NCBI GenBank assembly: GCA_021731145.1 | Contig: JAKFXX010000007.1 | Span: 72,108 to 136,107, forward strand | Source: Gammaproteobacteria bacterium | GTDB lineage: Bacteria; Pseudomonadota; Gammaproteobacteria; Ga0077554; Ga007554 | DNA length: 64,000 bases | Direction of reading: 5' to 3' | Part shown: positions 7,301 to 26,034 of the stretch, piece after piece | How positions within the stretch are numbered: the stretch's first letter is position 1 | Layout: every line of letters starts with the position of its first letter | Notes under the pieces: generated by a model | Database searches by the model: none | What the model saw: the letters and a program-made list of their open reading frames with translations, nothing else | Told to the model about the DNA's origin: nothing | Program-made: the position numbers and the translations under genes

Positions 7301-10300
7301 TGCGGATATTGGCGGCTTCAGCCGGCGCCAGGTGTTGCTGCCAGAGCAGCGTGCGCCCGGCACCATCACCTTTGCCGCCGGAAGTTCCTTGTGGGGAGCT
7401 ATTTCGGTTGAGGAAGGCGCGCAGGTGCGCACCGATCCAGGGGGAACGATTACGCTCAGTGCAGGCAGCCAGATCAGCCTTTTTGGCGCGCTGGAAGCGC
7501 CCGCCGGGAAGATTTTGCTGGATATAAAAGGCTATGCCGTGAACGGGACATTCGAGCCTAACCGTTTCGTTTGGCTGGGGGGCAACAGCCGCTTATTGGC
7601 GCAGGGTTTCGCCAGAACCCAGACCAATAACCAGGGGCTGCTTCAGGGCGAGGTTCTGGCTGGCGGTGAGATTAACGTCAGCGCCCCGCAAGATACATAT
7701 CTTGTCGCCGAGGCGGGTTCGGTGATGGATGTTTCAGGGGTCAGCGCCACGCTGGATATTCCTCAGCAAAACAATGCCGGCGTGAGCTATCGCCGTGACA
7801 CGATTGCCGGGGATGCGGGCGTTGTTAATCTTGCCATGTCCAACATGTTGCTTGACGGCACATTAAAGGGTGCGGCCGCCGGGGAGCATGCGCGTGGTGG
7901 TTCGCTTATTCTGTCATCCCCCGTGATGGTGGTGAAAGAGGATGGCGCGTCGTTGCCGCAGGGTTTGACGCCCGGCCAGAATATCGCTGCCAAAATGCTT
8001 GAGCCTGCGGCAAGCGCCCTCCAGGGGAAGTCTTTCGTTACGGCAAAGTCGGTGCGTGATGGCGGCTTTGATCAGATCACCTTGACGAGCCTGAACACCA
8101 TTGAATTTGATGGCGATGTCAGCCTTGCGCTGCGGCGCAGCATCACGCTCGATGCGCCAACGATTGCGGCAAAGGAGAATGCCAAGGTTGATCTCGCGGC
8201 CAGTTATGTGTCTGTGGGCAATAGCTCGATTGTGAAGTCGGCATCATCGGGTGGCGGTGGAACGTTAGACGTCGATGCGCGCCTGATTGATCTGGAAGGT
8301 AATGTTGCGCTACAGGGTTTTGGCAATGTTAATTTGGCCAGCACCGGTGATATCCGGCTCAAGGGCGTGTTGCAGGGCAGCGATTTTCTTGCACGCACGC
8401 TGGAAGGCTCGCTTGTCACCGGCGGCAACCTGACGCTACAGGCTGACCAGATTTATCCCACCACCTTGAGTCAATTCCGGCTGGCCGTTGAAAATAATCC
8501 AACGGGCAGCGTGACGATCCTCGGTGGAGGCGCGCCCAGCCCGGTGTTGTCGGCGGGCGGCAAACTTACCGTGAATGCGCCAAACATTGTGCAGCAAGGG
8601 GTACTCAAGGCGCCGCTGGGTGACATCACGCTGGCAGCGGAAGATACGCTGACCTTGGGCGATGGCAGTATCACGTCGGTTTCGGCGGAGGGGCAGATCA
8701 TTCCCTTCGGCAAGACCGATCTGAACGGCAGCGATTATCTCTACCCGCTGGCAGCCGTCGATCTTCGGCTGGATGCGCCGCCTGAAAAGCGTATCCGGTT
8801 GAATGGCAAGGCGATCACGGTTTCAGAAAATGCCGTAGTGGATATCTCCGGCGGGGGCGATCTTTACGCCTATGAATTCATTCCGGGGCCGGGTGGATCC
8901 AGGGATGTGCTTGATGCGGCGAATGCGGGTGATGTTTTCGCCATTCTGCCGGGACGTGCATCTGAATTTGCACCCTATGACAGCCATTATTATCAGGGTA
9001 ACAAGGGAATCAAGCCGGGCGATAGTGTTTATCTATCCGGCGTGGAGGGCTTGCCGGCAGGTTTTTATGCCATGATGCCTGCCCGTTATGCCTTGTTGCC
9101 CGGCGCCTTTCTGGTGAAACCGGTCTCAGGGTATCAGGATATGTCGCCTGGCCAGGCTGTGAAATTGACCGATGGCGCAACCATTGTGTCAGGCTACCAC
9201 GCGGCCGTGGGCCTGGACGGCAGCATCCTGCGTGATGCCAGAACATCGGGTTTTGCCGTGCGCCCTGGCGCATCTGCGCGCACCCAATCGGAGTATCTGG
9301 ATAGCACCGCGAGCGGATTCTTCGCCAACAGCCCGGGCACCCAGCTATCGGGCGATGCAGGCAATCTCTCCATCGCCGCTACCCAGTCCTTAACGCTGAA
9401 TGGTGTGCTGAAAGGTGATCATGCCGCTGGGCGTAACGGCTCGGAAGTGGACATTACCGCCGACCGGCTGGCCATCGTAGGCGCAGGGGCAGACACGTCT
9501 GGTCTGGAGGGCTTCATGCAGCTTGATGCCGCCAGCCTGAACAAATTCAGCGCGTCCAGCCTGTTGTTGGGCGGTACCCGCAAGCGCACTGAAAAAGGCA
9601 TGGAAATCCGCATGGATGCACGGCAGGTTGTGGTCGCCAACACGGCATCCAGCGCGCTGCGTGGCCCTGAGGTTTTATTGGCCGCCAAGGATGAGGTCAG
9701 GGTAAAGGCGGGCAGCGTAGTGGAAGGCAAGGGCGCCGCTTCCGGCAAGCCCCAGGATATTGCCATCGGGTTCACGATCAGGGATACCGACAACGACGGC
9801 GTTATCGGCAAGGCGGACACCAATCGCGGTGATGTGAATCATGATGGCGTGATTGATGGGCAGGACAATGTGGACGGCAATGGCGCGCTGTTGCGCGTGG
9901 CGTCCGGTGAAGCGGTGGCGATAACGCGCGAGAGCGTTGATCGCAGCCAGGGTGATCTGGTGGTGGAGGCCGGCGCGGTGTTGCGGGCAGACAAGTCCAT
10001 GATATTGGACGCTACGCGTGACAACCGTTCAGAGGGCACGCTTGCATTGGGCGAAGGGGGCGCTTTGAGCGTGGGCGCGCAGCGCATCAGCCTGGGCGAG
10101 GCGGGCGATGTGCGGGAAGGGTTGGTGTTTTCCAATGCGCAGCTTGCCGCGCTGAATAACCTTGGCAGCCTGACACTGCGCAGTTATAGCGCGGTGGATA
10201 TTTATGGCGGGGGCGATTTCGGCAGCAAGGCACTGAAGAACCTTTCTATCGAAGCGGCGGGTTTCGGAGGTTATCAAAACGCAGGACAAACAGCGACGCT

Positions 10301-13300
10301 GCGCGCGGAAACGGTTTCGCTGTCAAAACCGAACAACGCGGTCTCTGACGTGGCCGTGCCCGTGGGCACCGGCAAGCTGAATATCGACGCGCAACGGGTG
10401 ATGCTGGGCAAGGGCAAAACCGCACAGAGCAGTGACAACACGGAAGCGGGTTTTGCTGACGTCAAAGGTTTTACCATCAAAGGCTTTGATGGTGGCGTGA
10501 AGCTCGCTGCCGCGCAGGAGATCGTCGCCCAGGGACGCGGCAAACTCGATGTCGATGGCGATCTTGCCCTGGAGTCCTCCCGCATTACGGCGGCGGGCGG
10601 CGCCCGGCAGGCAATAACGGCCACTGGCGCAGTGAATATCACCCAACCCACGGTCGTGGCGAATCTTGGACAAGCCACCGCCCTGGCCGGGCGCCTGGAT
10701 TTCGTGGGCAAAAGCATCAATCATCAAGGCCGGATCGACCTCCCCACGGGCGTGGTGACAATGACCGCCAAGGGCGCGGATGCAACAGACAGCGTTACCC
10801 TTGCGGCAGGTTCGCAAATCAATGCGCCTGGATTCGTCAAGCGTTTCGACGACGTCGCCGCGTATGCGGCCGGGGGCAGCGTCACGCTGGTCTCGGAGCA
10901 CGGTGATGTGAATGTCAATTCAGGCGCATTGGTGGATGTGTCAGGCACGGCGCAGAGCGATGCGGGCCGTTTGACGCTCCGTGCGGCGCAAGGGCGGGCG
11001 AATATTGAAGGGAGCCTGAAGGGAGCCGCAGGCAGCACCTCACGCAAGGGTACTTTCACGCTGGATGCGGGTAAGATTTCTGACTTTAGCGCGCTGAACA
11101 ATACCCTGAACGCCGCCGAATTTGGCGAGGCGCGCAACATCCGCGTGCGCGGTGGCGACATCGCCGTGGCTGAGGGTGACACCATCAAGGCGCACCAGGT
11201 CAGCCTCGTCGCGGATGATGGCAGGATAGACGTGAAAGGCACAGTGGATGCCTCTGGCGACACCGGCGGAAGAATCGGGCTGTATGCGCAAAAAGACGTA
11301 ATGCTGCATAAAGGCGGCAGGCTTGATGCCCGCGCCATGGCTGCGGACAAAAAGGGCGGCAGTGTCACGCTGGCAACCAGCGCGGGCGAGATCGACCTGG
11401 AGTCGGGTGCGAGCATCGATGTTTCCGGCGGGGGCAAAGACAAAGGCGGCACAGTGCTGCTACGCGCGCCGCGCATCGACACTGACAATGACCAGAAAGA
11501 TGATAATGTCGCTATTAACCGCAAAGCAGGCACGGAGATCGCCATTCCCAGCGCATCCAGTGTTGTTATCGAAGGGGTTAAGGTGTACGACGCCACTACC
11601 ATTGCCGCGACAGGGGCCAAGGTGGCCACCGCTGCGGCAGCAAGCAATAAGTTGTACAGCGACACCAAGGGCTTCGCGCAGAACGCTGATGCCATCAAGG
11701 CGGGCCTCGGCAAAGGCGGTGATGCTAGCGTCCATGTGCGTGCGGGTGTGGAAATCCGCAGCCCCGGCGATTTGACCCTTGCTGCGGACTGGGATCTTTT
11801 TAATTGGCGTTTCAATGGTGAGCCTGGCGTACTTACCCTGCGCGCGCAAGGTGACCTGAAGCTTGATAAATCGATCAGTGATGGTTTTGCTTTTGCTTTT
11901 ACCAAGACGGGGGTCGATAAAGAGAAATCGCTGCTGCAAGCGGGAGACTCCTGGTCTTATCGTCTGGTGGCAGGGGCGGATCAAGGCAGTGCGGACCCCC
12001 TGGCCTTGCAGCTTCCGGGAGACGATACGGTGGGTGATGTTTTGCTTGCCGGCAAAACCATTGTTCGCACAGGCAACGGGACGATAGATATTGCCGCCGC
12101 GCGCGATGTTACCTTGGTCAGCGCGGAGTCGGTGATCTACACGGCGGGTGTGCCTGGGGGTCCTTTGAGTGATTTCACCCCTCCCCGTATGGGAGCGGAT
12201 GCTGCGGCAGTTACCGCTGCGTATCCCACGGCGGGCGGCGATATTCGCATCACCGCGCAAGGCAACATCGAGGCCAAGCAGCCGTCTCCCCAGCTCATCA
12301 CGGATTGGCTGTTCCGCCAAGGCAGCCTCAATGCCGACGGCACATTGGCGTCAAACTCATCTGTAAACGCCAATCACAAACAACCGGCCTGGCGGCCGGT
12401 GTTTAGCCAGTTCAAGCAGGGGATAGGCGCGCTGGGTGGCGGTGATATTTCCATTACAGCCGACGGTGATATTGACAACCTTTCGGCGGTCATCCCCACC
12501 AATGGCCGGCTGGGGGGAGCCAATGGCTCGATCCCCGATCCATCCAAACTGGTAGTGCAGGGTGGCGGCAATCTGAGCGTGACGGCGGGCGGCGATATTC
12601 GCAGCGGTATTTTCTATGTCGGCAAGGGCGTGGGCGACATCAAGGCCGGTGGTGCGCTGGGTTCGGCGCGTTCCGCGGATGGCAAGCCCTTATATACCTT
12701 GCTGGCGCTGGGCGAGGGCAGCTATAACGTCGCCTCTGGCGGTGAGTTGGCAGTGCAGCATGTGTTTAACCCTACCGTCGTGGCGCAAGCGGGTGGAAAT
12801 TTGAGTGGCACATCGAAGGATAAAAAATCTCAATTCTTTACCTATGACGCCGATAGCAAGGTGGCAATGACCTCGCTTTCCGGCGATGTGCGCTTTATCA
12901 ATGATTCGGCAAGCACGAAGAGTGTCTTTGGCAAAAATTCCGAGGGTATGTTTAACATCTATCCAGGCACGTTGTCCGCGTCGGCCTTGCAGGGAGGCAT
13001 TAGCTTGCATGGGCCTTTGGCGTTGTTCCCTGCGCCGCAAGGTAACTTGACCTTGCTTGCGGAAAAGTCGATCGATCTGAGCAGTAACACAGCGACGATC
13101 AATATGTCGGATGTGGCGCCTTCACGTTTGCCAAGCCCGCTTCATCCGCAGTCTGCTGACACTCTTGGGTTATATAAAGATGGGAACATCACAGCGCTGG
13201 TTTCAGCGGCGGACCTGGAAGGGCTCGATTATCACGACCCCGCCATCCTGCATCGTAACGACGCAGAGCCGGTGCGAATCTATGCGCAAACCGGGAGTAT

Positions 13301-14711
13301 CACCGGTGGCAACGCTCAGCGTTTTGCCATTCTACCCAAGCGGGCGTTACTCAGCGCCGGTGTGGACATTAAAAATGTTTCGCTCGCCGGGCAAAACCTG
13401 CGTGATACGGACGTGACCCGCCTTCAGGCCGGGCGCGATGTCATATTCCAGATCCAGCGTAATGATTCAGATGGTAAAATTATTTTTAGCCCAGGCCTCG
13501 AAGATCTCCCCATGAGCGGCCCCGGACGGGTGGAGGTGATTGCCGGGCGCGATGTGGATCTGGGCAGTTCCAGCGGCATCGTCACCAAGGGCAACCTCTA
13601 CAACCCCTTTCTCCCGGAACAGGGCGCCTCAGTGCTGGTATACGCGGGGGCGTCCGCGCCGGCGGATTACGCCGCATTCACCGCGCGCTACATCGAGCCG
13701 CGCGGCGCGGCAACAGGCGGGCGTGACTATATCCCCGAGCTTGCCAGTTACATGCGTGGCCAGAGTGGCGATTTGGGTCTCACTGAGGATGCGGCACTCG
13801 CTCAATTCAAGGCCTTGCCGCAAGAATCGCAGGCCGCGTTCATCAACCGTGTGTTCTTCGCCGAACTCAGATCCTCCGGCCGCGCCGCAGCCGATGTAAA
13901 AGGCCCGGAATACCGTAACTACAGCCATGGCAGAGCGCTCATTGCCACCCTGTTCCCAGCCGTCGAGGGTTCCGCAGGCCAGCCTGAAGGGGACATCAGG
14001 CTATATTTCAGCCAGATCAAAACCGAACAAGGCGGAGATATTGATTTGCTCGCGCCCCATGGTTTGGTCAATGCGGGGCTTGCCACTGCCAAGGGTGTAA
14101 ACAAAACAGCCGCAAACCTCGGTATCGTCAGCGTGCGTGGCGGCAATATAAACGCTTTTGTGCGCGACGATTTTCTGGTCAACCAGTCACGGGTGTTTAC
14201 CATGGCGGGTGGCGATATTCTGATCTGGTCCGACAAGGGCGATATCGACGCCGGCAAAGGCTCAAAAACCGCCAGCGCCACACCGCCGCCACGGCTGAGA
14301 TTGAACAAGGATGGTAGACTCTTTTTTGATATCACCGACTCGGTGACGGGCAGCGGCATCGGCACATTGCTCAGCAAGGAAGGCGTCAGGCCGGGCGATG
14401 TCGATTTGATAGCGCCCGCAGGCGTGGTGAACGCGGGTGATGCGGGCATCCGTGCCAAGGGTGACATCTTCATCCCTGGTTTGGTAGTGGGTGGGGATAA
14501 TATCCGGGCGGGGGGTACCATCACCGGCGTACCCGTCAGCGATAGTGGCGCATTCGCCGGTGCCCTGAGCGGCGTCAGCAACCTTGGCGCCGACACCAGC
14601 AAAATTGCCGAAAAGGCCACCCAGGATCTCTCCGCGTCGGCCGCCAATCCAGTGAAAAACACCTTCCGGCCTTCATTCCTGACGGTGGAGGTGATCGGAT
14701 TCGGTGATTGA
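4347..14711 (+). CDS. Giant TpsA exoprotein, filamentous-hemagglutinin family (3454 aa)
   Basis: ESPR-like extended signal peptide MNANLFRLVFSARLGALVPAWEGA...VFPVHA. TPS/hemagglutination-activity domain NWQSFNIGAGNSVEFRQP...LNRI...GNLKANGQLYLINQNGIIFG. Long Gly/Ala/Val/Asp-rich beta-helix-like repeats. FHA-family C-terminal region ending FLTVEVIGFGD. Paired with TpsB. Confidence 0.95.
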   Translation: MNANLFRLVFSARLGALVPAWEGARARRAGKGGQRGRAGKHAALFAGAAGVLLCVFPVHAELPMPCGGGACGTNPINTLPFASSGRADFSSNGVSAIINQLDQRVVLNWQSFNIGAGNSVEFRQPDAGSAALNRIWQGSPSEILGNLKANGQLYLINQNGIIFGKDAQVNASSLVASALNISDDVFKNGGIYGESSGANPVFTWEDGSGVEYSASFIRVDNGAKIASASGGVVMMLAPKVENHGSISAPGGQAVLAAGAKVYLSLLSDNEVNGLPAGSSLRGFAGLLVEVDPHASGLGGEVTNIGQIVAERGNITLAGLAVNQMGRVTATTSLRQKGSIMLLAADTKAGGDKTKIPVGQRTGALVLGKDSVTEVLPETNDATTNFDGQGFSPSTVDLAGKSIEMRENAAIVAPGGKVSLVAREDQRLPVPSESKIYMAPGSRIDVSGTKDVDVPMERNFIEVELRGNELKDSPLQRDGALRGKKVWIDIRKGTPLADVSGYTAQVGRTVAERTAEGGEVSLVSAGDIVMRENAVIDVSAGGLRYRDGQGKTTQLVSQGRVYDIGDAPADVIYDGIASFTKESRKWGITSTWSAFGGDGSLSRFEQGYYEGKNAGSVTFLASGLALDGTLTGKAAAGVHQRGSGVLPLGGKFTLGDVSQAGASTPDFRIPDVLFSAQKNPLPDDFTFDELKAKGLPESFRNRVTLSTGVLQAGGFNRIGVYSNGRIEVPKGVSISLAPGSWLGKDEEGKDKIYTASLTLTGRKLDILGDIDVPAGKITLASKRTLGSELLQQAEDFRVNVGADAGITARGLWVNDSRWVTPVTGADPLLINGGSISVSAFSDVALSSGSVLDVSGGGWVKPNNRLQVGNAGTLSLASGSFVNINRPDRFESTLYLDGELYGYALSSGNTVGKGGTLSLSTSSVKIGGTPSPVPGVLSLATGVFQSGGFKDYTITGMEGVTVSRGAQVAPLAESRVLTPDFVTRRSGADIGGFSRRQVLLPEQRAPGTITFAAGSSLWGAISVEEGAQVRTDPGGTITLSAGSQISLFGALEAPAGKILLDIKGYAVNGTFEPNRFVWLGGNSRLLAQGFARTQTNNQGLLQGEVLAGGEINVSAPQDTYLVAEAGSVMDVSGVSATLDIPQQNNAGVSYRRDTIAGDAGVVNLAMSNMLLDGTLKGAAAGEHARGGSLILSSPVMVVKEDGASLPQGLTPGQNIAAKMLEPAASALQGKSFVTAKSVRDGGFDQITLTSLNTIEFDGDVSLALRRSITLDAPTIAAKENAKVDLAASYVSVGNSSIVKSASSGGGGTLDVDARLIDLEGNVALQGFGNVNLASTGDIRLKGVLQGSDFLARTLEGSLVTGGNLTLQADQIYPTTLSQFRLAVENNPTGSVTILGGGAPSPVLSAGGKLTVNAPNIVQQGVLKAPLGDITLAAEDTLTLGDGSITSVSAEGQIIPFGKTDLNGSDYLYPLAAVDLRLDAPPEKRIRLNGKAITVSENAVVDISGGGDLYAYEFIPGPGGSRDVLDAANAGDVFAILPGRASEFAPYDSHYYQGNKGIKPGDSVYLSGVEGLPAGFYAMMPARYALLPGAFLVKPVSGYQDMSPGQAVKLTDGATIVSGYHAAVGLDGSILRDARTSGFAVRPGASARTQSEYLDSTASGFFANSPGTQLSGDAGNLSIAATQSLTLNGVLKGDHAAGRNGSEVDITADRLAIVGAGADTSGLEGFMQLDAASLNKFSASSLLLGGTRKRTEKGMEIRMDARQVVVANTASSALRGPEVLLAAKDEVRVKAGSVVEGKGAASGKPQDIAIGFTIRDTDNDGVIGKADTNRGDVNHDGVIDGQDNVDGNGALLRVASGEAVAITRESVDRSQGDLVVEAGAVLRADKSMILDATRDNRSEGTLALGEGGALSVGAQRISLGEAGDVREGLVFSNAQLAALNNLGSLTLRSYSAVDIYGGGDFGSKALKNLSIEAAGFGGYQNAGQTATLRAETVSLSKPNNAVSDVAVPVGTGKLNIDAQRVMLGKGKTAQSSDNTEAGFADVKGFTIKGFDGGVKLAAAQEIVAQGRGKLDVDGDLALESSRITAAGGARQAITATGAVNITQPTVVANLGQATALAGRLDFVGKSINHQGRIDLPTGVVTMTAKGADATDSVTLAAGSQINAPGFVKRFDDVAAYAAGGSVTLVSEHGDVNVNSGALVDVSGTAQSDAGRLTLRAAQGRANIEGSLKGAAGSTSRKGTFTLDAGKISDFSALNNTLNAAEFGEARNIRVRGGDIAVAEGDTIKAHQVSLVADDGRIDVKGTVDASGDTGGRIGLYAQKDVMLHKGGRLDARAMAADKKGGSVTLATSAGEIDLESGASIDVSGGGKDKGGTVLLRAPRIDTDNDQKDDNVAINRKAGTEIAIPSASSVVIEGVKVYDATTIAATGAKVATAAAASNKLYSDTKGFAQNADAIKAGLGKGGDASVHVRAGVEIRSPGDLTLAADWDLFNWRFNGEPGVLTLRAQGDLKLDKSISDGFAFAFTKTGVDKEKSLLQAGDSWSYRLVAGADQGSADPLALQLPGDDTVGDVLLAGKTIVRTGNGTIDIAAARDVTLVSAESVIYTAGVPGGPLSDFTPPRMGADAAAVTAAYPTAGGDIRITAQGNIEAKQPSPQLITDWLFRQGSLNADGTLASNSSVNANHKQPAWRPVFSQFKQGIGALGGGDISITADGDIDNLSAVIPTNGRLGGANGSIPDPSKLVVQGGGNLSVTAGGDIRSGIFYVGKGVGDIKAGGALGSARSADGKPLYTLLALGEGSYNVASGGELAVQHVFNPTVVAQAGGNLSGTSKDKKSQFFTYDADSKVAMTSLSGDVRFINDSASTKSVFGKNSEGMFNIYPGTLSASALQGGISLHGPLALFPAPQGNLTLLAEKSIDLSSNTATINMSDVAPSRLPSPLHPQSADTLGLYKDGNITALVSAADLEGLDYHDPAILHRNDAEPVRIYAQTGSITGGNAQRFAILPKRALLSAGVDIKNVSLAGQNLRDTDVTRLQAGRDVIFQIQRNDSDGKIIFSPGLEDLPMSGPGRVEVIAGRDVDLGSSSGIVTKGNLYNPFLPEQGASVLVYAGASAPADYAAFTARYIEPRGAATGGRDYIPELASYMRGQSGDLGLTEDAALAQFKALPQESQAAFINRVFFAELRSSGRAAADVKGPEYRNYSHGRALIATLFPAVEGSAGQPEGDIRLYFSQIKTEQGGDIDLLAPHGLVNAGLATAKGVNKTAANLGIVSVRGGNINAFVRDDFLVNQSRVFTMAGGDILIWSDKGDIDAGKGSKTASATPPPRLRLNKDGRLFFDITDSVTGSGIGTLLSKEGVRPGDVDLIAPAGVVNAGDAGIRAKGDIFIPGLVVGGDNIRAGGTITGVPVSDSGAFAGALSGVSNLGADTSKIAEKATQDLSASAANPVKNTFRPSFLTVEVIGFGD

Positions 14712-14949
14712 TTATCTTTGAATGTATGCGCTGTGCCCATGAAGGGGGCAATGTGCGCACCGGAGCAAGCAGCCTGGGCGACGTGGAACGGAATCCAGGC
14801 TGCGCACTTCATTTGATCAAACTGTCTGCTATTAACAATTCTGCAACATTTGGCGGGTAAAGTACCCCCTTCCTAAGCAAGCTCATCCCGTTGATGGGGT
14901 GGACGACAGCATATTCCTTCGATCAACCGGATTCACGAATAAAAACGTC

Positions 14950-16743
14950 ATGAAATTGCAATCCAACAAAAAGATATCGCGCATTTTTTTATTACTGGCG
15001 GGTTTGATGACGCTTGTCCCAGGTGTTTCCCACGCCTGGTGGAGTGACGATTGGTCGTATCGCAAAAAGATAACCCTCAATACCACGGAAAGTGGAGCAA
15101 GTATCAAGGAGAGTTTGGCGTCCGTGCCGGTCTTGGTGCGTCTGCACAGCGGCAATTTCGATTTTTTGAGCAGCAAGGAAGACGGATCGGACCTGCGTTT
15201 TGTCAGTGGCGATGACAAAACACCGCTCAAATATCACATCGAAAAATTCGATGGGCTGAATGAGCTTGCCGTGATCTGGGTACAGGTGCCGGCGCTGTCG
15301 GCACAATCCAGCGCCGACGCAATGTGGCTGTATTACGGCAATGAAAAGGCGGCCGCAGGCGATGACGCCAAAGGCACTTACGACGTTAATCAGGTGGTTG
15401 CCTATCATTTTGGCGGCCAGGGCGCACCCAAGGATCAAACCGCCTATGCCAACAGTGCAGCACAGTCCACGGCGAGCGAAGCCGCTGCATCATTGATCGG
15501 CGCAGGCGCAATATTCAATGCTACAAGCACCATAACCATACCGGCATCACCTTCACTCAACTTTACCGCAGAGAAGGGCTTCACGTTTTCCGCATGGATC
15601 AAGACTGCTGCGACGCAGGCGAATGCCGTAATTTTTTCCCAGCAGGAGGGCGCGGCGTCGCTGGTTATCGGCATGGATCAAGCGGGGGTGTATGCCCGCA
15701 TGCCCGGTGCGGAAACAAAACGTGTCGCGTTGGCGCCAGGCGCATGGCACCACGTGGCGGTAAGCGCCGGTAAGCGCCTGGTTGTTTATGTCGATGGCGT
15801 TGAGGCAGCAGCGGCGGATGCCGCCCTGCCGCCGCTGGGTGGGAATATCACGCTGGGCACCTCATTTACCGGTGAGATGGATGAGGTGCAGATATCAAAC
15901 GTTGCCCGTTCCGCGGACTGGATTAAAGCAGCGGCGCAAGGGGAAGGCGTTGATGCGAAGTTGATCGCCTACGGCGCGGATGAACAAACAGAGGGCGGCG
16001 ACTCATCTTATTTTAAGACTATCCTGCAATCCGTTACGCTCGATGGCTGGGTGGTGATCGCGATTTTGATGGTGATGGCCGTCATAAGCTGGATCGTGAT
16101 GGTGAACAAGGCTGTCGTCATCGGCAGAATGACCAGGGATAATGAAAAATTTATCACGTCTTTCCAGAAAGTCGCGGCTGATCCAGGCGTGCTGGACAGG
16201 GATGATGATCAGGATGATAACGCCAATAAAGAGACGCCTTTTGCCGCAGCATTGTTCGGGCGGCACGATCATTACCAAAGCTCGCCGATTTACCGCATCT
16301 ATCATGTTGGTGTGCAGGAAATCAAACACCGCTTTGGCAACACCGATCCCAAACTTGTAGGCAAGGCGCTCTCGCCGCAAGCCATCGGTGCGATTCGTGC
16401 CAGCCTCGATGGGGCATTGGTCAGGGAAAATCAGAAGCTCTCCAGCCAGATGGTGTTGCTCACCATCGCCATCAGTGGTGGGCCGTTCCTTGGTTTGCTC
16501 GGCACCGTGGTGGGCGTGATGATCACCTTCGCCGCGATTGCCGCCAGTGGTGACGTCAACGTCAATGCCATTGCGCCCGGTATTGCCGCAGCGCTGGTGG
16601 CTACCGTGGCGGGTCTGGCCGTGGCGATTCCAGCACTGTTTGGCTACAACTACCTGATCAGTAAAATCAAGAATATCACTGCGGATATGCATGTATTCGT
16701 CGATGAGTTTGTTCACAAGCTGGCTGAGAACTACGGAACTTAG
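14950..16743 (+). CDS. DUF2341/LamG-domain fusion to a MotA/TolQ/ExbB proton channel
   Basis: Signal peptide MKLQSNKKISRIFLLLAGLMTLVPGVSHA. WWSDDWSYRKKITLNT...VIWVQVP...WLYYGN (DUF2341-like). FTFSAWIKT...GAWHHVAVS...VVYVDG (LamG/concanavalin-like). Then three TM helices with an ExbB-type C-terminal pair (GGPFLGLLGTVVGVM / ALVATVAGLAVAIPALFGYN). Confidence 0.85.
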   Translation: MKLQSNKKISRIFLLLAGLMTLVPGVSHAWWSDDWSYRKKITLNTTESGASIKESLASVPVLVRLHSGNFDFLSSKEDGSDLRFVSGDDKTPLKYHIEKFDGLNELAVIWVQVPALSAQSSADAMWLYYGNEKAAAGDDAKGTYDVNQVVAYHFGGQGAPKDQTAYANSAAQSTASEAAASLIGAGAIFNATSTITIPASPSLNFTAEKGFTFSAWIKTAATQANAVIFSQQEGAASLVIGMDQAGVYARMPGAETKRVALAPGAWHHVAVSAGKRLVVYVDGVEAAAADAALPPLGGNITLGTSFTGEMDEVQISNVARSADWIKAAAQGEGVDAKLIAYGADEQTEGGDSSYFKTILQSVTLDGWVVIAILMVMAVISWIVMVNKAVVIGRMTRDNEKFITSFQKVAADPGVLDRDDDQDDNANKETPFAAALFGRHDHYQSSPIYRIYHVGVQEIKHRFGNTDPKLVGKALSPQAIGAIRASLDGALVRENQKLSSQMVLLTIAISGGPFLGLLGTVVGVMITFAAIAASGDVNVNAIAPGIAAALVATVAGLAVAIPALFGYNYLISKIKNITADMHVFVDEFVHKLAENYGT

Positions 16744-16831: not shown

Positions 16832-16892
16832 TGGGGTTCGGATCATGTTTCGTAATTTATAATTTCATGTGCTAGGACTGGAGGATAAAACG

Positions 16893-17297
16893 ATGCAAGT
16901 GCAGTCCGAAGATAAACCGTACGATGACATCAACGTCACGCCCATGCTCGATCTGGCGTATGTGTTGCTGGTAATTTTCATCATCATGACCACCGCTTCG
17001 GTACAGGGTATCAAGGTCAATCTGCCCAAGGCCAGCGCCACACCAAGCCTGGCTAAACCGACCACCAAGGCGATTACGATCACCGATGCCGGGCAAATAT
17101 TTCTCGACACCTATCCGGTGACGATGTCGGAGCTGGAAACACAGTTGCGCAGTTACAAGGCAGCCAACCCAAGTTTTCCCGTGGTCATCAAGGGCGACGC
17201 CAAGGTTCAGTATGAAAAGGTGATTGACGTGCTGGACTTGATGGGCAAGCTCGATATTACGCAATTGGGTTTGGTTACACAGAAAATTGTCAAATAA
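16893..17297 (+). CDS. exbD: ExbD/TolR-family biopolymer transport protein
   Basis: A ggagga RBS lies 8 nt upstream of ATG 16893. N-terminus DDINVTPMLDLAYVLLVIFIIM is the typical ExbD TM segment. Size 134 aa. Confidence 0.9.
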   Translation: MQVQSEDKPYDDINVTPMLDLAYVLLVIFIIMTTASVQGIKVNLPKASATPSLAKPTTKAITITDAGQIFLDTYPVTMSELETQLRSYKAANPSFPVVIKGDAKVQYEKVIDVLDLMGKLDITQLGLVTQKIVK

Positions 17298-17336: not shown

Positions 17337-18032
17337 GTGAGTGCCGACAAGCAGTTTCTGTTCCGCTGGGCGCCCAGGCTGATAGTGGTGGCGTTCCTCC
17401 TGCTGTTTCTTGTGGCGGCGGTCTATTTTCTGAGAGATATCATCTTTGCTGATGATAGCCACAAAAAAAATGTGATCCATGAGATCTCGCTGATAAAGCC
17501 GCCGCCGCCTCCCAAGCCAGAGGAAAAACCACCGGAGCCGGAGGTGAAAAAAGAAGAGGTAAAAATCCCCGAGCCGGAAACGCCGCCTCCTCCTGCTGAT
17601 CAGCCTGATAATGCCAAGCAAGACGAACCACCGCCCGCAAACGACTTGGGGCTGGATGCTGATGGTCAGGCGGGTTCTGATTCCTTTGGCTTGGGTGCCA
17701 ACAAAGGGGGAAGAAGCATCATCGGAGGGGGGGGCGGTAACGGCGGTGGTGGAAATCGCTACGGCTGGTATGCGGGAATGATTGAAAAGGGAATTCAGGA
17801 TGTTTTGGACAAGAATAAAGAGCTTGCCAAAGATAACTATAAGGTTGTCATAAAAGTCTGGGTCAACAAGGACGGGAGCGTCGAGCGCTTTGATCTTGGC
17901 GGTTCTTCCGGGAATCCAGAGACGGATAAGGCGATAAGGACGGCACTGAAAGAAATGACACGGGTGAAAGAACCGCCTCCAGACGGAATGCCGCAACCTG
18001 TAAAGCTGCGCATCACTTCGCGTTTGTTGTAA
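17337..18032 (+). CDS. tonB: TonB-family energy transducer
   Basis: GTG start. N-terminal TM LIVVAFLLLFLVAAVYFL. Pro/Glu/Lys-rich spacer KPPPPPKPEEKPPEPEVKKEEVKIPEPETPPPP. C-terminal TonB-like domain VIKVWVNKDGSVERFDL...PVKLRITSR. Confidence 0.8.
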   Translation: MSADKQFLFRWAPRLIVVAFLLLFLVAAVYFLRDIIFADDSHKKNVIHEISLIKPPPPPKPEEKPPEPEVKKEEVKIPEPETPPPPADQPDNAKQDEPPPANDLGLDADGQAGSDSFGLGANKGGRSIIGGGGGNGGGGNRYGWYAGMIEKGIQDVLDKNKELAKDNYKVVIKVWVNKDGSVERFDLGGSSGNPETDKAIRTALKEMTRVKEPPPDGMPQPVKLRITSRLL

Positions 18033-18121: not shown

Positions 18122-19660
18122 ATGGCAATTAAGAAATTAGGTGTTACCGTCTTATCTCTCGCATTGTTCAATCCATCCGCGTGGGCTGGAGAAAAAGAAG
18201 ATCTTGAAAAACTGCGCGGAACTACCAAAGGACTGATTCAAATTCTGGTGGAGCAGGGCGCGATTACCAAGGAAAAGGCCGGGGAGTTAATACGCGAGAT
18301 CGAGAAATCTCCCACGGAAACGGAAACACCGGAAGAAGAAGTAGATAAGAAAACCGTGCGCGTGCCTTACGTGTCTGAAACGGTCAAGCAGGAAATGACG
18401 GAGCAGATCCGGATGGATGTGCTGGCACAAGCCAAGCGGGAACAGTGGGGCAAGCCCGGCGCAATCCCTGAGTGGGCACAGAAAATAAGGTGGGAAGGCG
18501 ATTTTCGCTTGCGTTCACAGAGCGATATGTTTCAGAGCGACAACTTTAACCTCCTGCCAAACTATCTGGAGATTAACCGGGTTGGCGGTCCGGCGAATAC
18601 GGATAATCCCTTTCTGAATACTACTAATGACCGGGAGCGTTTACGGTTGCGGGCAAGGCTGAGCATGCTCGCCGAAGTCACGCAAGGGGTCACGGCGGCA
18701 TTCCGTCTGGCCACCGGTAGTGCCAATGATCCTGTTTCGACCAACCAGACATTGGGCAATATGGGCAATCGTTTTAATTTTATGCTTGATCAAGCCTACA
18801 TCAAGCTGGAGCCTTATCAATGGTTGACGCTGGTGGGTGGCAAGATACCCAATCCCTGGTTTGGCACCGACCTGGTGTGGGACGAGGATCTTAACTTCGA
18901 TGGCGCCGCCGTGCAATTCAAACCGCGCATCGGCAACGAACTGGTATGGTTCTCAACGCTGGGTGCTTTTCCGTTGCAGGAAATCGAGCTGTCGAAAAAG
19001 GACAAATGGCTATACGGTGCGCAGACCGGTGTCGATTGGAATCGAAGCCAGTTCAGGGCGAGATTTGGCGTGGCTTATTATGACTACCAGAATATCACCG
19101 GGCAAAGAAAAGCGCCCAATGATCCTTCTCAGGATTTTACCGCGCCGCAGTTTATGCAGAAAGGTAATACCTTGTTTGATATTTCACAAACTCAAAACAG
19201 TGGCAGGTACGCGCTTGCATCTGAATACAAAGAATTGAACATAACCGCCAACCTCGATATATACACATTTTCCCCGGTACACATCACGCTGACAGGCGAT
19301 TATGTCAAGAATATTGGGTTTAAAAAAGAAGACATAGTGCAGCGTACCGGGAGAGATGTCGACCAGCAGAATCAGGCATATTTGGGCAGGGTTGCTGTCG
19401 GCATGCCGAGGATCAAGCATCGCCACGACTGGCAGGTGTTCGGTGGTTATAAACACCTGGAAAGCGACGCCGTATTGGATGCCTTCACAGATTCCGATTT
19501 CCATCTGGGGGGCACCAATGCCAAAGGCTGGATCGCGGGCGGTAGCTATGGTGTTGCCACCGATACCTGGCTGACACTGCGCTGGTTGAGCGCGGATCAG
19601 ATAGTTGGGCCGCCGCTTGCCATCGACGTTATGCAACTTGATTTGAACGTGAGATTTTGA
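18122..19660 (+). CDS. Putative porin-like outer-membrane beta-barrel with an N-terminal charged/coiled segment
   Basis: Signal peptide ...LFNPSAWA. About 90 aa of Glu/Lys-rich helix. Alternating beta-strand-like sequence follows. The terminal LDLNVRF carries an OMP-type C-terminal Phe. Confidence 0.65.
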   Translation: MAIKKLGVTVLSLALFNPSAWAGEKEDLEKLRGTTKGLIQILVEQGAITKEKAGELIREIEKSPTETETPEEEVDKKTVRVPYVSETVKQEMTEQIRMDVLAQAKREQWGKPGAIPEWAQKIRWEGDFRLRSQSDMFQSDNFNLLPNYLEINRVGGPANTDNPFLNTTNDRERLRLRARLSMLAEVTQGVTAAFRLATGSANDPVSTNQTLGNMGNRFNFMLDQAYIKLEPYQWLTLVGGKIPNPWFGTDLVWDEDLNFDGAAVQFKPRIGNELVWFSTLGAFPLQEIELSKKDKWLYGAQTGVDWNRSQFRARFGVAYYDYQNITGQRKAPNDPSQDFTAPQFMQKGNTLFDISQTQNSGRYALASEYKELNITANLDIYTFSPVHITLTGDYVKNIGFKKEDIVQRTGRDVDQQNQAYLGRVAVGMPRIKHRHDWQVFGGYKHLESDAVLDAFTDSDFHLGGTNAKGWIAGGSYGVATDTWLTLRWLSADQIVGPPLAIDVMQLDLNVRF

Positions 19661-19717
19661 CCTGTGTATTTTTTAGAGTCACGGAACACGGCCGGGACCA
19701 GACAGGAGGTGAATGTC

Positions 19718-20416
19718 ATGATCCGTCATAAAGGATGGCTTCTGCTTGTAATGTTCACTCTAGGGTTGGCCGGAAATGCCGCTGCGGATTCCGGTGACAA
19801 AAAAGAACGCGAGGCGCTAAGAAAAATGCGCCTCATGATACAGACGTTTGAACAGGAAAAATCGGCGCTGCAGCAGGAAAACAATAGCCTGAACGAGAAA
19901 GTGAAGGCACTGGGTAGCCAGGTCGGTGACATCAAAAGCGCTTCCACAGGCCAGATCAGGAAAAAAGATGCTCGTTTGGGCGAGGTTGAAAAGGAACTGG
20001 TTGCTGTCAAACAGGAAAATCAGTTTCTGGTAGCCAAGCTGCAAAGTACCCAGCAGAGTCTGGAAGAATTGACGCTGAAGCACAAGGAGGTTGTTCAGGC
20101 CGCGCAAAACAGTCTTCAGGACGGCGTCAAGCAAGGCGAGGAGTATAACAATAAGATAAAAGAGGCTGAAGTCAAAATTTCTCAGCAGTCTCAAGCTATT
20201 GACATGTGCGAGAAGAAGAATCTGGCGCTTTACAATCTCAATATGGAGATTCTGGAGAAATACAAGAGTAAGGGTGTTTGGGGATCATTTATTCAGGCTG
20301 AGCCCTTTACGCAAATAAAGCGCGTTGAAATTGAGAATACACTGCAAGAATATAAGGACAAGCTTGACAGCCAAAAAATGGAAAAATCTGGACCCGGCAC
20401 CGGCAAGGGAGGATAG
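19718..20416 (+). CDS. Secreted/periplasmic coiled-coil protein
   Basis: An aggagg RBS precedes ATG 19718. Signal peptide MIRHKGWLLLVMFTLGLAGNAAA. The remainder is heptad-like and rich in Glu/Lys/Gln/Leu. Confidence 0.7.
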   Translation: MIRHKGWLLLVMFTLGLAGNAAADSGDKKEREALRKMRLMIQTFEQEKSALQQENNSLNEKVKALGSQVGDIKSASTGQIRKKDARLGEVEKELVAVKQENQFLVAKLQSTQQSLEELTLKHKEVVQAAQNSLQDGVKQGEEYNNKIKEAEVKISQQSQAIDMCEKKNLALYNLNMEILEKYKSKGVWGSFIQAEPFTQIKRVEIENTLQEYKDKLDSQKMEKSGPGTGKGG

Positions 20417-20472: not shown

Positions 20473-21162
20473 ATGAGTCCAATTTCACGCCCTGCCTTTA
20501 GCCGTATTTTCCCCTTTGCGATTTATATTGCCTTTTTGGCCATTGCCTCCGGCATGTCCACCTTGCAGGATATGGGCTATATCAAAGACTGGGATTTGCG
20601 CTGGCTCTATCCTGTCAAGGTGGGTTTGGTGTTGCTGGCGCTGCTAGGGTTATGGCGCCATTATTCTGAACTTTCCAGGCCAGCCAATGTAAAGGCGGGG
20701 GACTGGATCGTTGCCGGGATCACGGGTGTTGTGGTTTTTGTGATCTGGATTAACCTGGACCAGGCGTGGGCGACAATGGGCAGCGAGTCACGCGGCTTCA
20801 GTCCGGTATCAGAAGGGGGCGAAATTGACTGGATACTGGTGGCATTCCGTCTGATAGGCGCGGCTATGATAGTGCCTGTCATGGAGGAGTTGTTCTGGCG
20901 TTCGTTTGTGATGCGCTGGATAGATAACCCGGATTTTCTTCGCATCAATCCAGCTCAAATCAGCATTAAGTCGTTTGTTATAGCTTCGGTACTTTTTGGT
21001 ATCGAACACAATCTGTGGCTGGCGGGCATCATTGCCGGGATTGCCTATGGTTGGCTATACAAGCGCAGTGCCAATCTTTGGGTTCCTGTATTTTCACATG
21101 CCGTCACCAACGGCCTGCTTGGCATCTGGGTGATCTATTCCGGAAATTGGCAGTTCTGGTGA
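20473..21162 (+). CDS. CPBP (CAAX-type) intramembrane metalloprotease, resembling the PEP-CTERM-associated subfamily
   Basis: Multi-TM protein with the motifs EELFWRSF, FGIEH and HAVTN. Confidence 0.85.
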   Translation: MSPISRPAFSRIFPFAIYIAFLAIASGMSTLQDMGYIKDWDLRWLYPVKVGLVLLALLGLWRHYSELSRPANVKAGDWIVAGITGVVVFVIWINLDQAWATMGSESRGFSPVSEGGEIDWILVAFRLIGAAMIVPVMEELFWRSFVMRWIDNPDFLRINPAQISIKSFVIASVLFGIEHNLWLAGIIAGIAYGWLYKRSANLWVPVFSHAVTNGLLGIWVIYSGNWQFW

Positions 21163-22133: not shown

Positions 22134-22185
22134 TGGCTGTTTTACTTACGAGATGAGTCCTCAGAGTAAGTGATATTTGATTTGT

Positions 22186-23382
22186 ATGCCCATTTACCAT
22201 TATAGCGCCTTGACAGAACGCGGCGTTTTGGCCGCAGGCGAGGGGGTTGCCACCTCGAGCGAAGCTTTACGCCAGGAATTGGTGGCGAAGGGTCTGCTGG
22301 TACAAGACATCCGTCAAAAAAACTCTGGATTGGGCTTGCGCCTAAAGCGCATCAAAGCGGAGGAATTTCTGCTGTTTAACCAGGAGTTTGTGGCACTCAT
22401 ACGCGCGGGTTTGACAATACCCGACGCCTTGAAAATAGCGGCGGATCGTCCTGATAGCCCGATGTTGGCCAGCCTCCTGCGGCACGTGAATGAAGAGGTG
22501 CATGGTGGTGCGTTACTTTCCGAAGCCTGCTCCAGGCACCCCGAGGTATTCGATGGTCTTTACGTCTCTGCGATAAAAACCGGCGAAAAGACCGGCGTGC
22601 TGGCGACGGTTCTGGAGAAATATCAAGCCTACCTCAAACGCCGGGTTGGTTTGCAGAAAACCATTTCACATGCGCTGACCTATCCGGTGTTTTTGTTGCT
22701 GGTGTTAGGCACGGTGCTGGGTGTGCTGTTTTTGTTTGTCATGCCGCGTTTTGTTGCGATGTATACCGATTTTGGCGCTGAACTGCCGCTACCCACACAA
22801 ATTCTCGTTACCTTGGTAAATAATTTGCCTTTTTATTTACCCGTGGTGTTATTGCTGGGCACGCTCGGATGGTTCGCCATCCAAGCCTGGGTAAAGACCG
22901 ATGCAGGGCGTCTGCGGGCAGATCATTTGAAGGGACGGCTGCCGATACTGGGGAAGGTCTATCAGGATATTGCCATCGTGCAACTGGTGCGGACGCTTGC
23001 CACCCTGCTCTCCGGTGGTACGCCCTTGGTCGAGGCCATGCGCATCACGCAGGATTCACTTACCAATCGCGCCAAGGCGCGTGCGTTGGCTCAGGCCGAA
23101 AACCTGGTGATGGGGGGGCAAAGCCTGGCGTCTGCCATGCGCAATACGCAACTCATGCCGGGAACGGCAATAAAGATGATTGAGGTGGGCGAGGCGTCGG
23201 GTGGGCTTGATGCCATGCTGGAGGAAATCGCCCAGTTCTATGAGGAAGTACTGACTAATAAACTTGCACGCATGACAGCATTGATTGAGCCTTTATTGAT
23301 GCTGATCATGGGCGTCATGATAGGCGGCACGATCATCGTGATGTATTTGCCGATCTTTCAGATTGCGGACATCGTCAAATGA
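22186..23382 (+). CDS. gspF: Type II secretion / type IV pilus platform protein (GspF/PilC family)
   Basis: About 400 aa with a duplicated T2SS-F architecture and three TM segments. Its stop overlaps the next start (ATGA). Confidence 0.9.
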   Translation: MPIYHYSALTERGVLAAGEGVATSSEALRQELVAKGLLVQDIRQKNSGLGLRLKRIKAEEFLLFNQEFVALIRAGLTIPDALKIAADRPDSPMLASLLRHVNEEVHGGALLSEACSRHPEVFDGLYVSAIKTGEKTGVLATVLEKYQAYLKRRVGLQKTISHALTYPVFLLLVLGTVLGVLFLFVMPRFVAMYTDFGAELPLPTQILVTLVNNLPFYLPVVLLLGTLGWFAIQAWVKTDAGRLRADHLKGRLPILGKVYQDIAIVQLVRTLATLLSGGTPLVEAMRITQDSLTNRAKARALAQAENLVMGGQSLASAMRNTQLMPGTAIKMIEVGEASGGLDAMLEEIAQFYEEVLTNKLARMTALIEPLLMLIMGVMIGGTIIVMYLPIFQIADIVK

Positions 23383-25097: not shown

Positions 25098-26034
25098 TCT
25101 GTTTGACAGTATTGCACCGCGCTCTAAAGCCGTTTTTGGAATCGGCATCGGCAGGGATCGTCTTTCTGCCGCGCATGTTGTTACTACAAAACAGGCGAGA
25201 CATATCGAACGGATCAGGCAGATAAATCTGCCTTTCACACTATTCAGTGGCACCCCTACGCCCGAGATAGGTCATGGGCTTTCATCCTTGTTGGGCGAGT
25301 TATGCGGTGAAGTCAAAAGGTCGCATATTCCCATTCAGATCGCATTGCCTGACCCGGTGGTGAGCTTGCGTGTCTTCGAGTTGGGTGCCATTCCTAAAAC
25401 CAGAAAAGAGCAACTGGCGCTTGTCCACTGGCGGTTCAACAAGGAGTTGAATTTGGGGGGGCGCGCCATTGAATGCAGTTGCCAGCCTTTGGGCGTGGAT
25501 AACGACAAACATCTCTTGTTGGCGATGGCTATCGATCAGGCTTGGTTGGATTGCCTGAAGGAGGCGTGCCGGGACGCGGGTGTGATCAGTACGGTCATCG
25601 ACATGGCGGCGTGTTATCGCTCTAACCGTTTTTACGAACGCTTCTCTTGCGATGGCGCCGATGTAGTTGTTATTTCATTGGATGACGACGCCTGGACAGT
25701 GTCCATTTCGGACGCGCAAGGCCGTTTACGCTTTGTCCGCTCGCGTTGGCGTGAAACCATGCCGGAGCGGGAGAGGGAATATCAGGAAATAGCCGCCGAG
25801 TCAGAAAAGATGGTGCGCCTCTATGCGCATGCCGCCCCTGGCCGGAGCATAAAAAACATACACGCAATAGGTGATGCCAAGGATGTCTCTGGGGTCGCGG
25901 ATTTATTGGATCAACGCATGGCGGGGAAATGTATCAGGGTGGCCGGAGGAGTCGAGTTTATATCTAAGCAAGGCGTGTCCGGAAATACTGTAGACAGTAT
26001 GGTGTCAACCCTGTCGGCAACGGTGTTGCGATGA
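25078..26034 (+). CDS. PilM/GspL-like cytoplasmic assembly protein (actin-like fold inferred)
   Basis: Position and size fit. N-terminus AVFGIGIGRDRLSAAHVV resembles the PilM phosphate-1 strand. GTG start overlaps the gspE end. Confidence 0.45.
   Translation: MSLSLNNLFDSIAPRSKAVFGIGIGRDRLSAAHVVTTKQARHIERIRQINLPFTLFSGTPTPEIGHGLSSLLGELCGEVKRSHIPIQIALPDPVVSLRVFELGAIPKTRKEQLALVHWRFNKELNLGGRAIECSCQPLGVDNDKHLLLAMAIDQAWLDCLKEACRDAGVISTVIDMAACYRSNRFYERFSCDGADVVVISLDDDAWTVSISDAQGRLRFVRSRWRETMPEREREYQEIAAESEKMVRLYAHAAPGRSIKNIHAIGDAKDVSGVADLLDQRMAGKCIRVAGGVEFISKQGVSGNTVDSMVSTLSATVLR

Follow-up and report, generated by a model that had tools for sequence, protein, structure and literature searches.

A TolQ/ExbB-family motor subunit with a predicted lectin-like periplasmic crown, co-inherited with a two-partner secretion pair and a Porin_5 outer-membrane protein

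The open reading frame (ORF) at positions 14950-16743 (+) of a 64,000-nucleotide stretch of a Gammaproteobacteria bacterium contig (referred to as a whole as the window) encodes a channel protein of the TolQ/ExbB family, here termed ExbB*, with a large N-terminal extension composed of a DUF2341 domain and a lectin-like LamG domain. Judging from sequence, ExbB* is the A subunit of a motor of the Ton/Tol type; its counterparts are an ExbD-like protein, in which the essential membrane Asp is conserved, and a TonB/TolA-like protein. Inherited along with it are a Pdt-type two-partner secretion (TPS) pair, TpsA and TpsB, a Porin_5 protein and a coiled-coil protein. We consider it probable, though by no means certain, that this is a dedicated motor serving the Pdt-type TPS and Porin_5 surface system, and that the extension forms a periplasmic "crown" that acts as a binding adaptor.

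Domain architecture and predicted structure of ExbB*

The segments of ExbB* are the following:
14950-16743 (+): ExbB*, TolQ/ExbB-family stator subunit with an N-terminal DUF2341 and LamG extension, predicted to be periplasmic, of the ExbB2/PA0693 family; 597 aa (translation, Pfam)
14950-15033 (+): predicted Sec signal peptide, residues 1-28 (MKLQSNKK...VPGVSHA/WW; hydropathy peak at 9-27, AXA-like SHA site, model helix 4-22)
15037-15405 (+): first beta-sandwich, residues ~30-152, which holds DUF2341 (78-145) (Pfam, AlphaFold2 model)
15523-15927 (+): Laminin_G_3 / concanavalin-A-like lectin domain, Pfam residues 192-326, with a predicted fold that reaches ~345
16048-16104 (+): transmembrane helix 1 (TM1), residues 367-385, after the conserved juxtamembrane segment SYF.TIL.SVTLDGW (hydropathy 2.83)
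16378-16689 (+): MotA_ExbB channel core with TM2-TM3, residues 477-580 (Pfam, alignment with E. coli TolQ)

The frame starts with ATG, translates without stops and contains all the peptides quoted in the first-pass annotation, which had proposed a signal peptide followed by DUF2341, a LamG-like segment and ExbB-type helices. Profile searches confirmed all three domains far above the Pfam thresholds: DUF2341 at residues 78-145 (E 2.4e-18, 66.8 bits against a cut-off of 23.4), Laminin_G_3 at residues 192-326 (E 3.1e-17, 63.6 bits against 27.6) and MotA_ExbB (PF01618) at residues 477-580 (E 1.1e-27, 96.8 bits against 22.9). The cleavage site of the signal peptide is inferred from the features listed above and not from a dedicated predictor; it leaves ~337 of the ~365 precursor residues ahead of TM1 in the mature protein, so that the "roughly 360 aa" given earlier for the extension is a fair estimate. 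The extension probably lies in the periplasm, as had been proposed, because it begins with a signal peptide and because the core is homologous to TolQ and ExbB, whose N-terminus is periplasmic in the solved structures; the hydropathy-based topology is consistent with this placement.

The structure was modelled with AlphaFold2 (AF2) on a 45-sequence alignment, which gave a mean predicted local distance difference test score (pLDDT) of 77.9; a single-sequence run (mean pLDDT 41.9) was discarded. Residues 30-340 form two beta-sandwiches with 10-residue block means of pLDDT of ~75-96, mostly above 85. In the first sandwich these means are ~84-92 for residues 31-130 and ~75-77 for residues 131-150, and its mean pairwise identity among 45 homologues is 61%. 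A low-confidence linker (349-360) is followed by helices at 354-410, 476-533 and 538-595, and the model and the hydropathy profile, which places the TM2/TM3 hairpin at ~505-563, agree on a three-TM layout with a long cytoplasmic TM1-TM2 loop and a TM2-TM3 hairpin. Five columns at the border of TM1 (V362, T363, D365, G366 and W367) are invariant in the family alignment. For the jelly-roll of the LamG part, both the profile and the predicted fold fit a concanavalin-A-like lectin/LamG domain, and many of its best fold matches are carbohydrate-binding modules, in keeping with the lectin-like character postulated in the first-pass annotation. The Foldseek matches are dominated by the LamG and TolQ parts, with none obtained separately for the DUF2341 sub-domain, and a PDB sequence search with the extension returned no meaningful match.

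The channel core

In sequence alignments the core of ExbB* matches TolQ of E. coli with E 3.7e-17 and ExbB with E 1.6e-10, and its helical part superposes on TolQ of E. coli and Acinetobacter with a TM-score of ~0.76 in Foldseek, TolQ being the best solved match. The Thr residues of GLLGTVVG and ALVATVAG are aligned opposite the Thr of the matching TolQ motifs. The core, designated "ExbB channel" in the first-pass annotation, scores nearer TolQ than ExbB. The equivalog scores fall below the cut-offs for tolQ (TIGR02796, 134.5 against 221), for exbB (TIGR02797, 69 against 206.2) and for the exbB2-type model TIGR02805 (57.9 against 135.35). Since both the tolQ and the exbB cut-off are missed, we rejected the assignment of ExbB* as a canonical ExbB or TolQ; it is a member of the MotA/TolQ/ExbB superfamily that is neither.

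At residue 547 (nt 16588-16590) the acidic residue of the TolQ TM3 motif APGIAEAL is replaced by Ala (APGIAAAL). This Ala column is invariant among the 45 aligned family members, and both channel Thr are retained.

The module in the window

ExbB* is flanked on the same strand by the genes of its putative partners:
2576-4186 (+): TpsB, Omp85-family TPS transporter (Pfam POTRA_2 and ShlB)
4347-14711 (+): giant TpsA, 3454 aa, with ESPR signal and TPS domain at residues 91-262 (Pfam, NCBIfam adhes_NPXG)
14208-14537: DUF3739 of TpsA, residues 3288-3397 (Pfam)
14676-14705: tail motif of TpsA, FLTVEVIGFG, conserved among 55 linked TpsAs
16869-17297 (+): ExbD/TolR-like partner with the conserved transmembrane Asp (…INVTPMLDLAYVLL…; Pfam ExbD, E 6.4e-28)
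17337-18032 (+): TonB/TolA-like transducer with an N-terminal TM helix, a Pro/Glu/Lys-rich linker and a TonB_2 C-terminal domain (Pfam TonB_2, E 6.7e-10; NCBIfam tonB_Cterm)
18122-19660 (+): Porin_5 outer-membrane protein of the PA0696 family (Pfam PF16930, E 7.6e-175)
19664-20416 (+): secreted coiled-coil protein in the PA0697 position (weak SMC-like coiled-coil matches)

The ExbD-like protein, whose true start is possibly ATG 16890, has the Asp of …TPMLDLAY… aligned opposite the Asp of …TPFIDVML… in E. coli ExbD and retains a periplasmic domain of its own. The coiled-coil protein, which probably starts at an internal ATG at ~19718 (MIRHKGW…), matches no Pfam family. A promoter and terminator scan around the operon gave hits at chance level only, with no terminator between tpsA and exbB*.

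The linked TpsAs (n=55) share DUF3739 and a terminal motif [FL][IL][ST]V[EQ]V[LI]G[FYH]G, and the P. aeruginosa protein identified here as PdtA has SVITVQVLGFG. This tail, which is beta-strand-like, loosely resembles a strand of the TonB-box type and could serve a periplasmic partner as a handle. In TpsB, there are only ~12 mature residues between the predicted cleavage site and POTRA1, and the alignment with CdiB (6WIM) begins at CdiB residue 52, with ~51 CdiB residues before the aligned position; the N-terminus is likewise short in another homologue (L083:8343-9977). Comparison of these sequences suggests that this class of TpsB, including the P. aeruginosa protein identified as PdtB, may be devoid of the N-terminal H1 plug helix and linker of FhaC and CdiB. 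The Porin_5 protein begins (nt 18188-18430, +) with a periplasmic N-terminal helix L..LV.QG.I..E.A followed by a near-invariant VRVPY[VI]P strand. Helix and strand are conserved in the family and shared with PA0696 of P. aeruginosa, and the N-terminal extension is a possible docking site for the C-terminal domain of the TonB-like protein. A PDB sequence search returned no solved relative of Porin_5, and no structure of the crown or of Porin_5 has been solved.

Conservation of the neighbourhood

Full-length relatives of ExbB* were found at 80 genomic loci in species-representative genomes, and their neighbourhoods were compared by phmmer searches with the window proteins against stop-to-stop frames. 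The denominators given for each neighbour are the loci with enough flanking DNA, and five loci annotated with Pfam agree with the resulting synteny table. The ExbD gene follows ExbB* in all 75 loci, the TonB-like gene is present in 69 of 69, the Porin_5 gene in 60 of 62 and the coiled-coil gene in 55 of 56, while TpsA or TpsB is encoded upstream on the same strand in 62 of 65 (the script gave 61, to which we added L005, dropped only for overlapping frames). The carriers comprise Gammaproteobacteria (Methylococcaceae, Thiohalobacterales, Steroidobacteraceae), Betaproteobacteria (Thiobacillus, Rhodoferax), Alphaproteobacteria and six genomes of Verrucomicrobia; many of the loci come from metagenome-assembled genomes, whose taxon labels may be imperfect. 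Precomputed Pfam tables show the same module in Achromobacter, Alloalcanivorax and Sideroxydans, in Alloalcanivorax accompanied by STN, extracytoplasmic function (ECF) sigma factor and FecR genes that resemble vreAIR. The link to the neighbouring TpsA suggested in the first-pass annotation has therefore gained strong comparative support, with TPS genes upstream across phyla as well as in Pseudomonas, Achromobacter, Alloalcanivorax and Sideroxydans.

The order of the genes varies. In L031, L039, L047, L078 and L086 TpsB is adjacent and TpsA is encoded elsewhere, and in L055 and L063 the Porin_5 and coiled-coil genes lie upstream of the motor. The gene set is kept together despite this reordering, which argues for function rather than mere inheritance of an operon. 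We found no plug-type TonB-dependent receptor in the conserved set (window, P. aeruginosa, Achromobacter, Alloalcanivorax and Sideroxydans); therefore Porin_5, TpsB and TpsA are the only outer-membrane candidates.

Two plasmid copies were also found. The Klebsiella pneumoniae IncFIB/IncHI1B plasmid NZ_CP065459.1 (95-5250) encodes an ExbB* homologue of 38% identity, followed by ExbD, TonB, a "putative porin", a hypothetical protein, YbjN, a parvulin-type isomerase and LysR; ahead of this intact ExbB*-ExbD-TonB-Porin_5-YbjN-rotamase-LysR set are fragments of TpsA (DUF3739) and TpsB, whose genes appear split and may be pseudogenes. From these sequences the module appears to travel on clinical plasmids as well. 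The plasmid NZ_AP019784.1 of Methylomagnum ishizawai (11602-15341) carries a 51%-identical copy reduced to ExbB*-ExbD-TonB and a hypothetical protein, with genes of an alkaline phosphatase and PhoX a few genes (~2.5 kb) away, which hints at a connection to phosphorus.

Extent and origin of the family

All 120 best homologues of ExbB* in the database search share DUF2341, LamG and MotA_ExbB, and they are named "DUF2341 domain-containing protein", "MotA/TolQ/ExbB proton channel family protein" or "biopolymer transport protein ExbB". The three-domain protein occurs in thousands of clusters, one of them with 904 members. The fusion, treated as unusual in the first-pass annotation, is thus the hallmark of a large annotated family that includes a P. 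aeruginosa protein identified below as ExbB2; the architecture is already known, and ExbB* is a rather distant new member of this functionally unexplored ExbB2-type family. DUF2341 figures among the N-terminal appendages of non-flagellar A subunits in a 2025 survey of MotAB relatives, which calls their function unknown (PMC12505986).

Among the 45 homologues, the extension shows 51-61% mean pairwise identity, against 86% for the channel, and contains many invariant residues, a pattern that points to purifying selection on the extension. That the fusion is an error of annotation or assembly, or a decaying gene, is hardly conceivable: the sole weak point is a poor Shine-Dalgarno region ahead of ATG 14950, against which stand the intact frame, the spread of the same three-domain protein over so many clusters, the conservation of the extension and its confidently predicted fold.

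A search of 1.84 billion representatives with the 321-aa extension alone retrieved 8,695 proteins at E <= 1e-10, which fall into two groups. The first comprises ExbB-type proteins of ~600 aa with 40-55% identity, and the second giant proteins of 1.5-7.8 kaa, which contain the whole DUF2341+LamG cassette in up to 25 copies at ~30% identity. Since the cassette is repeated in the giant proteins, it looks like a mobile adhesin-type unit that has been captured by an ExbB/TolQ gene.

The ExbB2 locus of Pseudomonas aeruginosa

With the Klebsiella protein as query we retrieved a 615-aa protein, P0154, from the cluster of 904 sequences, whose named members are from P. aeruginosa. ExbB* aligns with P0154 over residues 14-596, extension included, at 40% identity (BLASTP, E 2e-138). 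The P0154 locus encodes, in this order, a 4,180-aa TPS+DUF3739 protein, a DUF772 protein, TpsB, the DUF2341-LamG-ExbB protein, ExbD, TonB_2, Porin_5, a 220-aa protein, YbjN, a rotamase, a 141-aa protein, LysR and AraC. The published map of PA0690-PA0701a comprises pdtA, phdA, pdtB, exbB2, exbD2, tonB4, PA0696 ("putative outer membrane porin") and PA0697 onward (PMC7035377, PMC2729926). Because the two match, we identify P0154 as ExbB2 (PA0693), by neighbourhood and without an accession or locus tag. ExbB* has the features of the ExbB2 type: a signal peptide with the three domains, homology over the full length, and as neighbours TpsB and TpsA (TPS + DUF3739), ExbD, TonB_2, Porin_5 and a helical protein of ~220-280 aa.

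The P. aeruginosa locus belongs to the VreI/PhoB regulon and is expressed in infection, and PdtA, PA0696 and PA0698 are among the proteins most enriched under phosphate limitation, i.e. they are co-induced at the protein level (PMC9769906). Llamas et al. (2009) reported that homologues of the TPS, exbBD and PA0696 genes travel together in other bacteria (PMC2729926).

Proposed function and alternatives

By analogy with the solved 5:2 complexes of ExbB and TolQ, five copies of ExbB* would surround a dimer of the ExbD-like protein. In these complexes the N-terminus of TM1 emerges at the rim of the pentamer, which is also the docking site of the TonB/TolA helix; the lectin-like arms, five in number, would therefore ring the motor there as a periplasmic crown. 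The motor would pass proton-motive force to the outer-membrane part of the module (Porin_5 and/or TpsB-TpsA) and thereby power a step that needs energy as the giant TpsA is exported, kept at the surface, released or used, while the crown would be a module-specific adaptor that grips a periplasmic partner. Our first choice for this partner is the TonB-like or the coiled-coil protein of the module, ahead of the periplasmic C-terminal DUF3739 end of TpsA, with a glycan last; it is favoured by the precedent of ExbB and HasB in Serratia and by the geometry of the rim. Peptidoglycan, exopolysaccharide and TpsA, the ligands to which the first-pass annotation had suggested that the motor is tethered, are hypothetical candidates. 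In a crude distance-matrix co-evolution test over 47 loci, which recovered the expected signal between ExbD and the core, mirror-tree partial correlations with the crown were 0.63 for the coiled-coil protein, 0.58 for the C-terminal domain of the TonB-like protein and 0.27 for the C-terminus of TpsA, but rank-based multiple regression ordered the candidates differently, so that no partner is singled out.

Several points weigh against an adaptor crown on a motor for TPS and Porin_5. Two-partner secretion is not known to need an inner-membrane energy source. Three of the 65 loci (L006, L012 and L070) have no TPS gene directly upstream, and the Methylomagnum plasmid copy has neither TPS nor Porin_5 genes nearby. 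The co-evolutionary ranking of crown partners is method-dependent and identifies none of them, and the predicted fold by itself cannot separate the binding of sugars from the binding of proteins. The P. aeruginosa motor has been described as a putative TonB system that had yet to be characterised (PMC7035377), and in our literature search, which covered DUF3739, PA0693/0695/0696/0697, TonB4 and PdtA, we came upon no study that addresses the function of the motor or of the ExbB2 extension. Mutants of tonB4 and PA0696 had wild-type virulence in zebrafish, although secretion was not assayed (PMC2729926).

The resemblance of the crown to carbohydrate-binding modules also suits an anchor, in which it would bind peptidoglycan or another envelope glycan and merely position or activate the stator under the wall, in the manner of the peptidoglycan-binding domains of MotB, TolR and ExbD; the TPS proteins would not be contacted directly. 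The extension is predicted to emerge on the periplasmic face of the motor, and the 2025 survey notes that, for binding the wall, the B subunits of such non-flagellar motors possess no more than compact folds (PMC12505986). However, an ExbB ring fixed to the wall would conflict with ExbB turning around a wall-anchored ExbD, as extrapolated from rotary models (PMC9008036); the ExbD-like protein of the window has a periplasmic domain of its own, and an anchor leaves unexplained why the extension is confined to a family linked to TPS and Porin_5. We therefore find this explanation quite unlikely.

Another explanation is uptake, with the motor energising the import of a scarce nutrient, most plausibly a phosphorus polymer or compound, via Porin_5; TpsA would then capture the substrate outside the cell, by the logic of HxuA/HxuB/HxuC, and the crown would receive it, for which the carbohydrate-binding modules among its best fold matches are suggestive. 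The P. aeruginosa module is among the sets most strongly induced by phosphate starvation (PMC2729926, PMC7035377, PMC9769906) and adjoins the Hxc secretion system and alkaline phosphatases, the Methylomagnum copy lies beside the PhoX and alkaline phosphatase genes, both in the window and in L024 a weakly PstS-like protein (PBP_like_2, E 1.7e-4, sub-threshold) is encoded upstream of tpsB, and a combination of TPS with TonB-dependent uptake has a precedent (PMC5422565). On the other hand, neither a plug domain nor a canonical TonB box can be recognised in Porin_5 according to Pfam, the conserved set contains no periplasmic binding protein or ABC importer (80 loci and the Pfam-annotated loci), the PstS-like gene is not conserved with the module in the 80 loci, and the Pho-box pattern has 4 matches in the window against 4.2 expected, i.e. 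no signal above chance. On balance we regard uptake as unlikely.

Within the preferred reading of a motor serving the TPS and Porin_5 proteins, a bolder and rather improbable variant is an energy-coupled type Vb machine, in which the crown and the TonB/TolA-like arm would grip the DUF3739/VEVLGFG end of TpsA and/or gate TpsB and Porin_5, and so power the export, surface anchoring or release of an exoprotein of 3,000-4,000 aa. In the textbook view TPS is self-sufficient and energy-independent, and Ton/Tol motors are importers or stabilisers of the envelope. Such a machine, if real, would overturn the view of type V secretion as always energy-independent. Should the TPS cargo or its transporter be what the motor acts on, proton-motive force would have a new role at the outer membrane, and this would explain the strongly phosphate-starvation-induced, infection-expressed locus of P. 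aeruginosa, whose motor genes have stayed uncharacterised since 2009. The carriers of the crowned motor include P. aeruginosa, Achromobacter, Bordetella, Burkholderia and Klebsiella plasmids, and the tractable homologue exbB2 (PA0693) makes the question directly testable.

Other genes of the window

Downstream of the module, the window encodes a CAAX protease, a DsbA-like protein and a cluster resembling a type II secretion system (T2SS) or type IV pilus (T4P). These and two genes near the start of the window are:
12-602 (+): protein with a PEP-CTERM sorting signal
786-2348 (+): 520-aa secreted protein just upstream of tpsB, with the sub-threshold PBP_like_2 (PstS-type) match
20473-21162 (+): PEP-CTERM-associated CAAX-type protease (TIGR03008, 241 bits), right after the module
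22177-30538 (+): T2SS/T4P-like cluster directly after the module, with GspF, GspE, a gene in a possible PilM position (no Pfam family found), PilN, PilO, a 210-aa protein, a secretin with TPR and a pseudopilin

A T2SS/T4P-like cluster adjoins the module also in L001, L002 and Sideroxydans (L087), and the Hxc T2SS of P. aeruginosa lies beside pdt. DsbA and GspE/F were nevertheless rejected as core parts of the module, since of the 80 loci they occur in none but the two nearest relatives, and so was the CAAX protease, found in only 4 of 80. The PEP-CTERM protein and the CAAX-type protease imply an exosortase system in the organism. The PstS-like protein, which has a homologue in the same position in L024 and nowhere else among the loci, was likewise rejected as a core part; by its sequence similarity it is a possible link to phosphate.

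Comparison with known systems

ExbB* has the core fold and channel motifs in common with TolQ-TolR-TolA and ExbB-ExbD-TonB of E. coli. These motors lack a large crown, and their partners are TolB-Pal or plug-type receptors instead of Porin_5 and TPS proteins. The order of A subunit, B subunit, transducer and then outer-membrane-associated and coiled-coil periplasmic proteins resembles that of tolQRA-tolB-pal-cpoB.

The giant DUF2341+LamG repeat proteins (exoproteins of Patescibacteria and large archaeal proteins associated with type IV pili) share the same cassette across its full 320 aa at ~30% identity, and in the literature they are viewed as modules for adhesion, host interaction or the pilus tip. 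They are found outside the cell or in association with pili, without any membrane motor, whereas ExbB* bears a single cassette on the periplasmic end of an inner-membrane channel subunit.

The "long" ExbB of Serratia marcescens resembles ExbB* in having a signal peptide and a periplasmic N-terminal extension, which contacts the C-terminal domain of the TonB paralogue HasB (PMC9008036). That extension, however, has ~50 aa (from a few to 150 in the family), is rich in Ala and Pro and is predicted to be disordered (PMC9008036), unlike the ~337 aa and two folded beta-sandwiches of ExbB*, and the window has no hasB or haem context such as that of the Serratia Has system. On length and disorder we rejected ExbB* as a long ExbB of the Serratia type.

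In HxuA/HxuB/HxuC of Haemophilus influenzae the TPS pair works with a TonB-energised outer-membrane component of the same operon (PMC5422565). This is a precedent for a TpsA/TpsB pair that cooperates with such a component, but HxuC is a canonical plug-containing receptor that depends on the general TonB system, and Hxu comprises no dedicated motor, ExbB extension, Porin_5 or TpsA of the DUF3739 type.

The closest relative is ExbB2-ExbD2-TonB4 (PA0693-PA0695) of P. aeruginosa, with the same three-domain ExbB, 40% identical along its full length, and the same neighbours (TPS+DUF3739 TpsA, TpsB, ExbD, TonB_2, Porin_5 and the helical protein of ~220 aa), down to the TpsA tail, the N-terminal motifs of Porin_5 and the shortness of the TpsB N-terminus. 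An additional Ala/Glu-rich loop of ~27 aa is present in the LamG domain of P. aeruginosa, where the order is pdtA-phdA-pdtB-exbB2 as opposed to tpsB-tpsA-exbB* in the window. No ECF sigma factor, FecR or STN gene (vreAIR-like) was found among the window ORFs scanned at 25-50 kb, those beyond 50.6 kb not having been scanned, and the window also lacks the YbjN, PpiC-type rotamase and LysR genes that come next in Pseudomonas, Achromobacter and Klebsiella. The YbjN, rotamase and LysR genes and control by VreAIR and PhoB are marks of a Pseudomonas/Achromobacter subgroup and not of the whole family.

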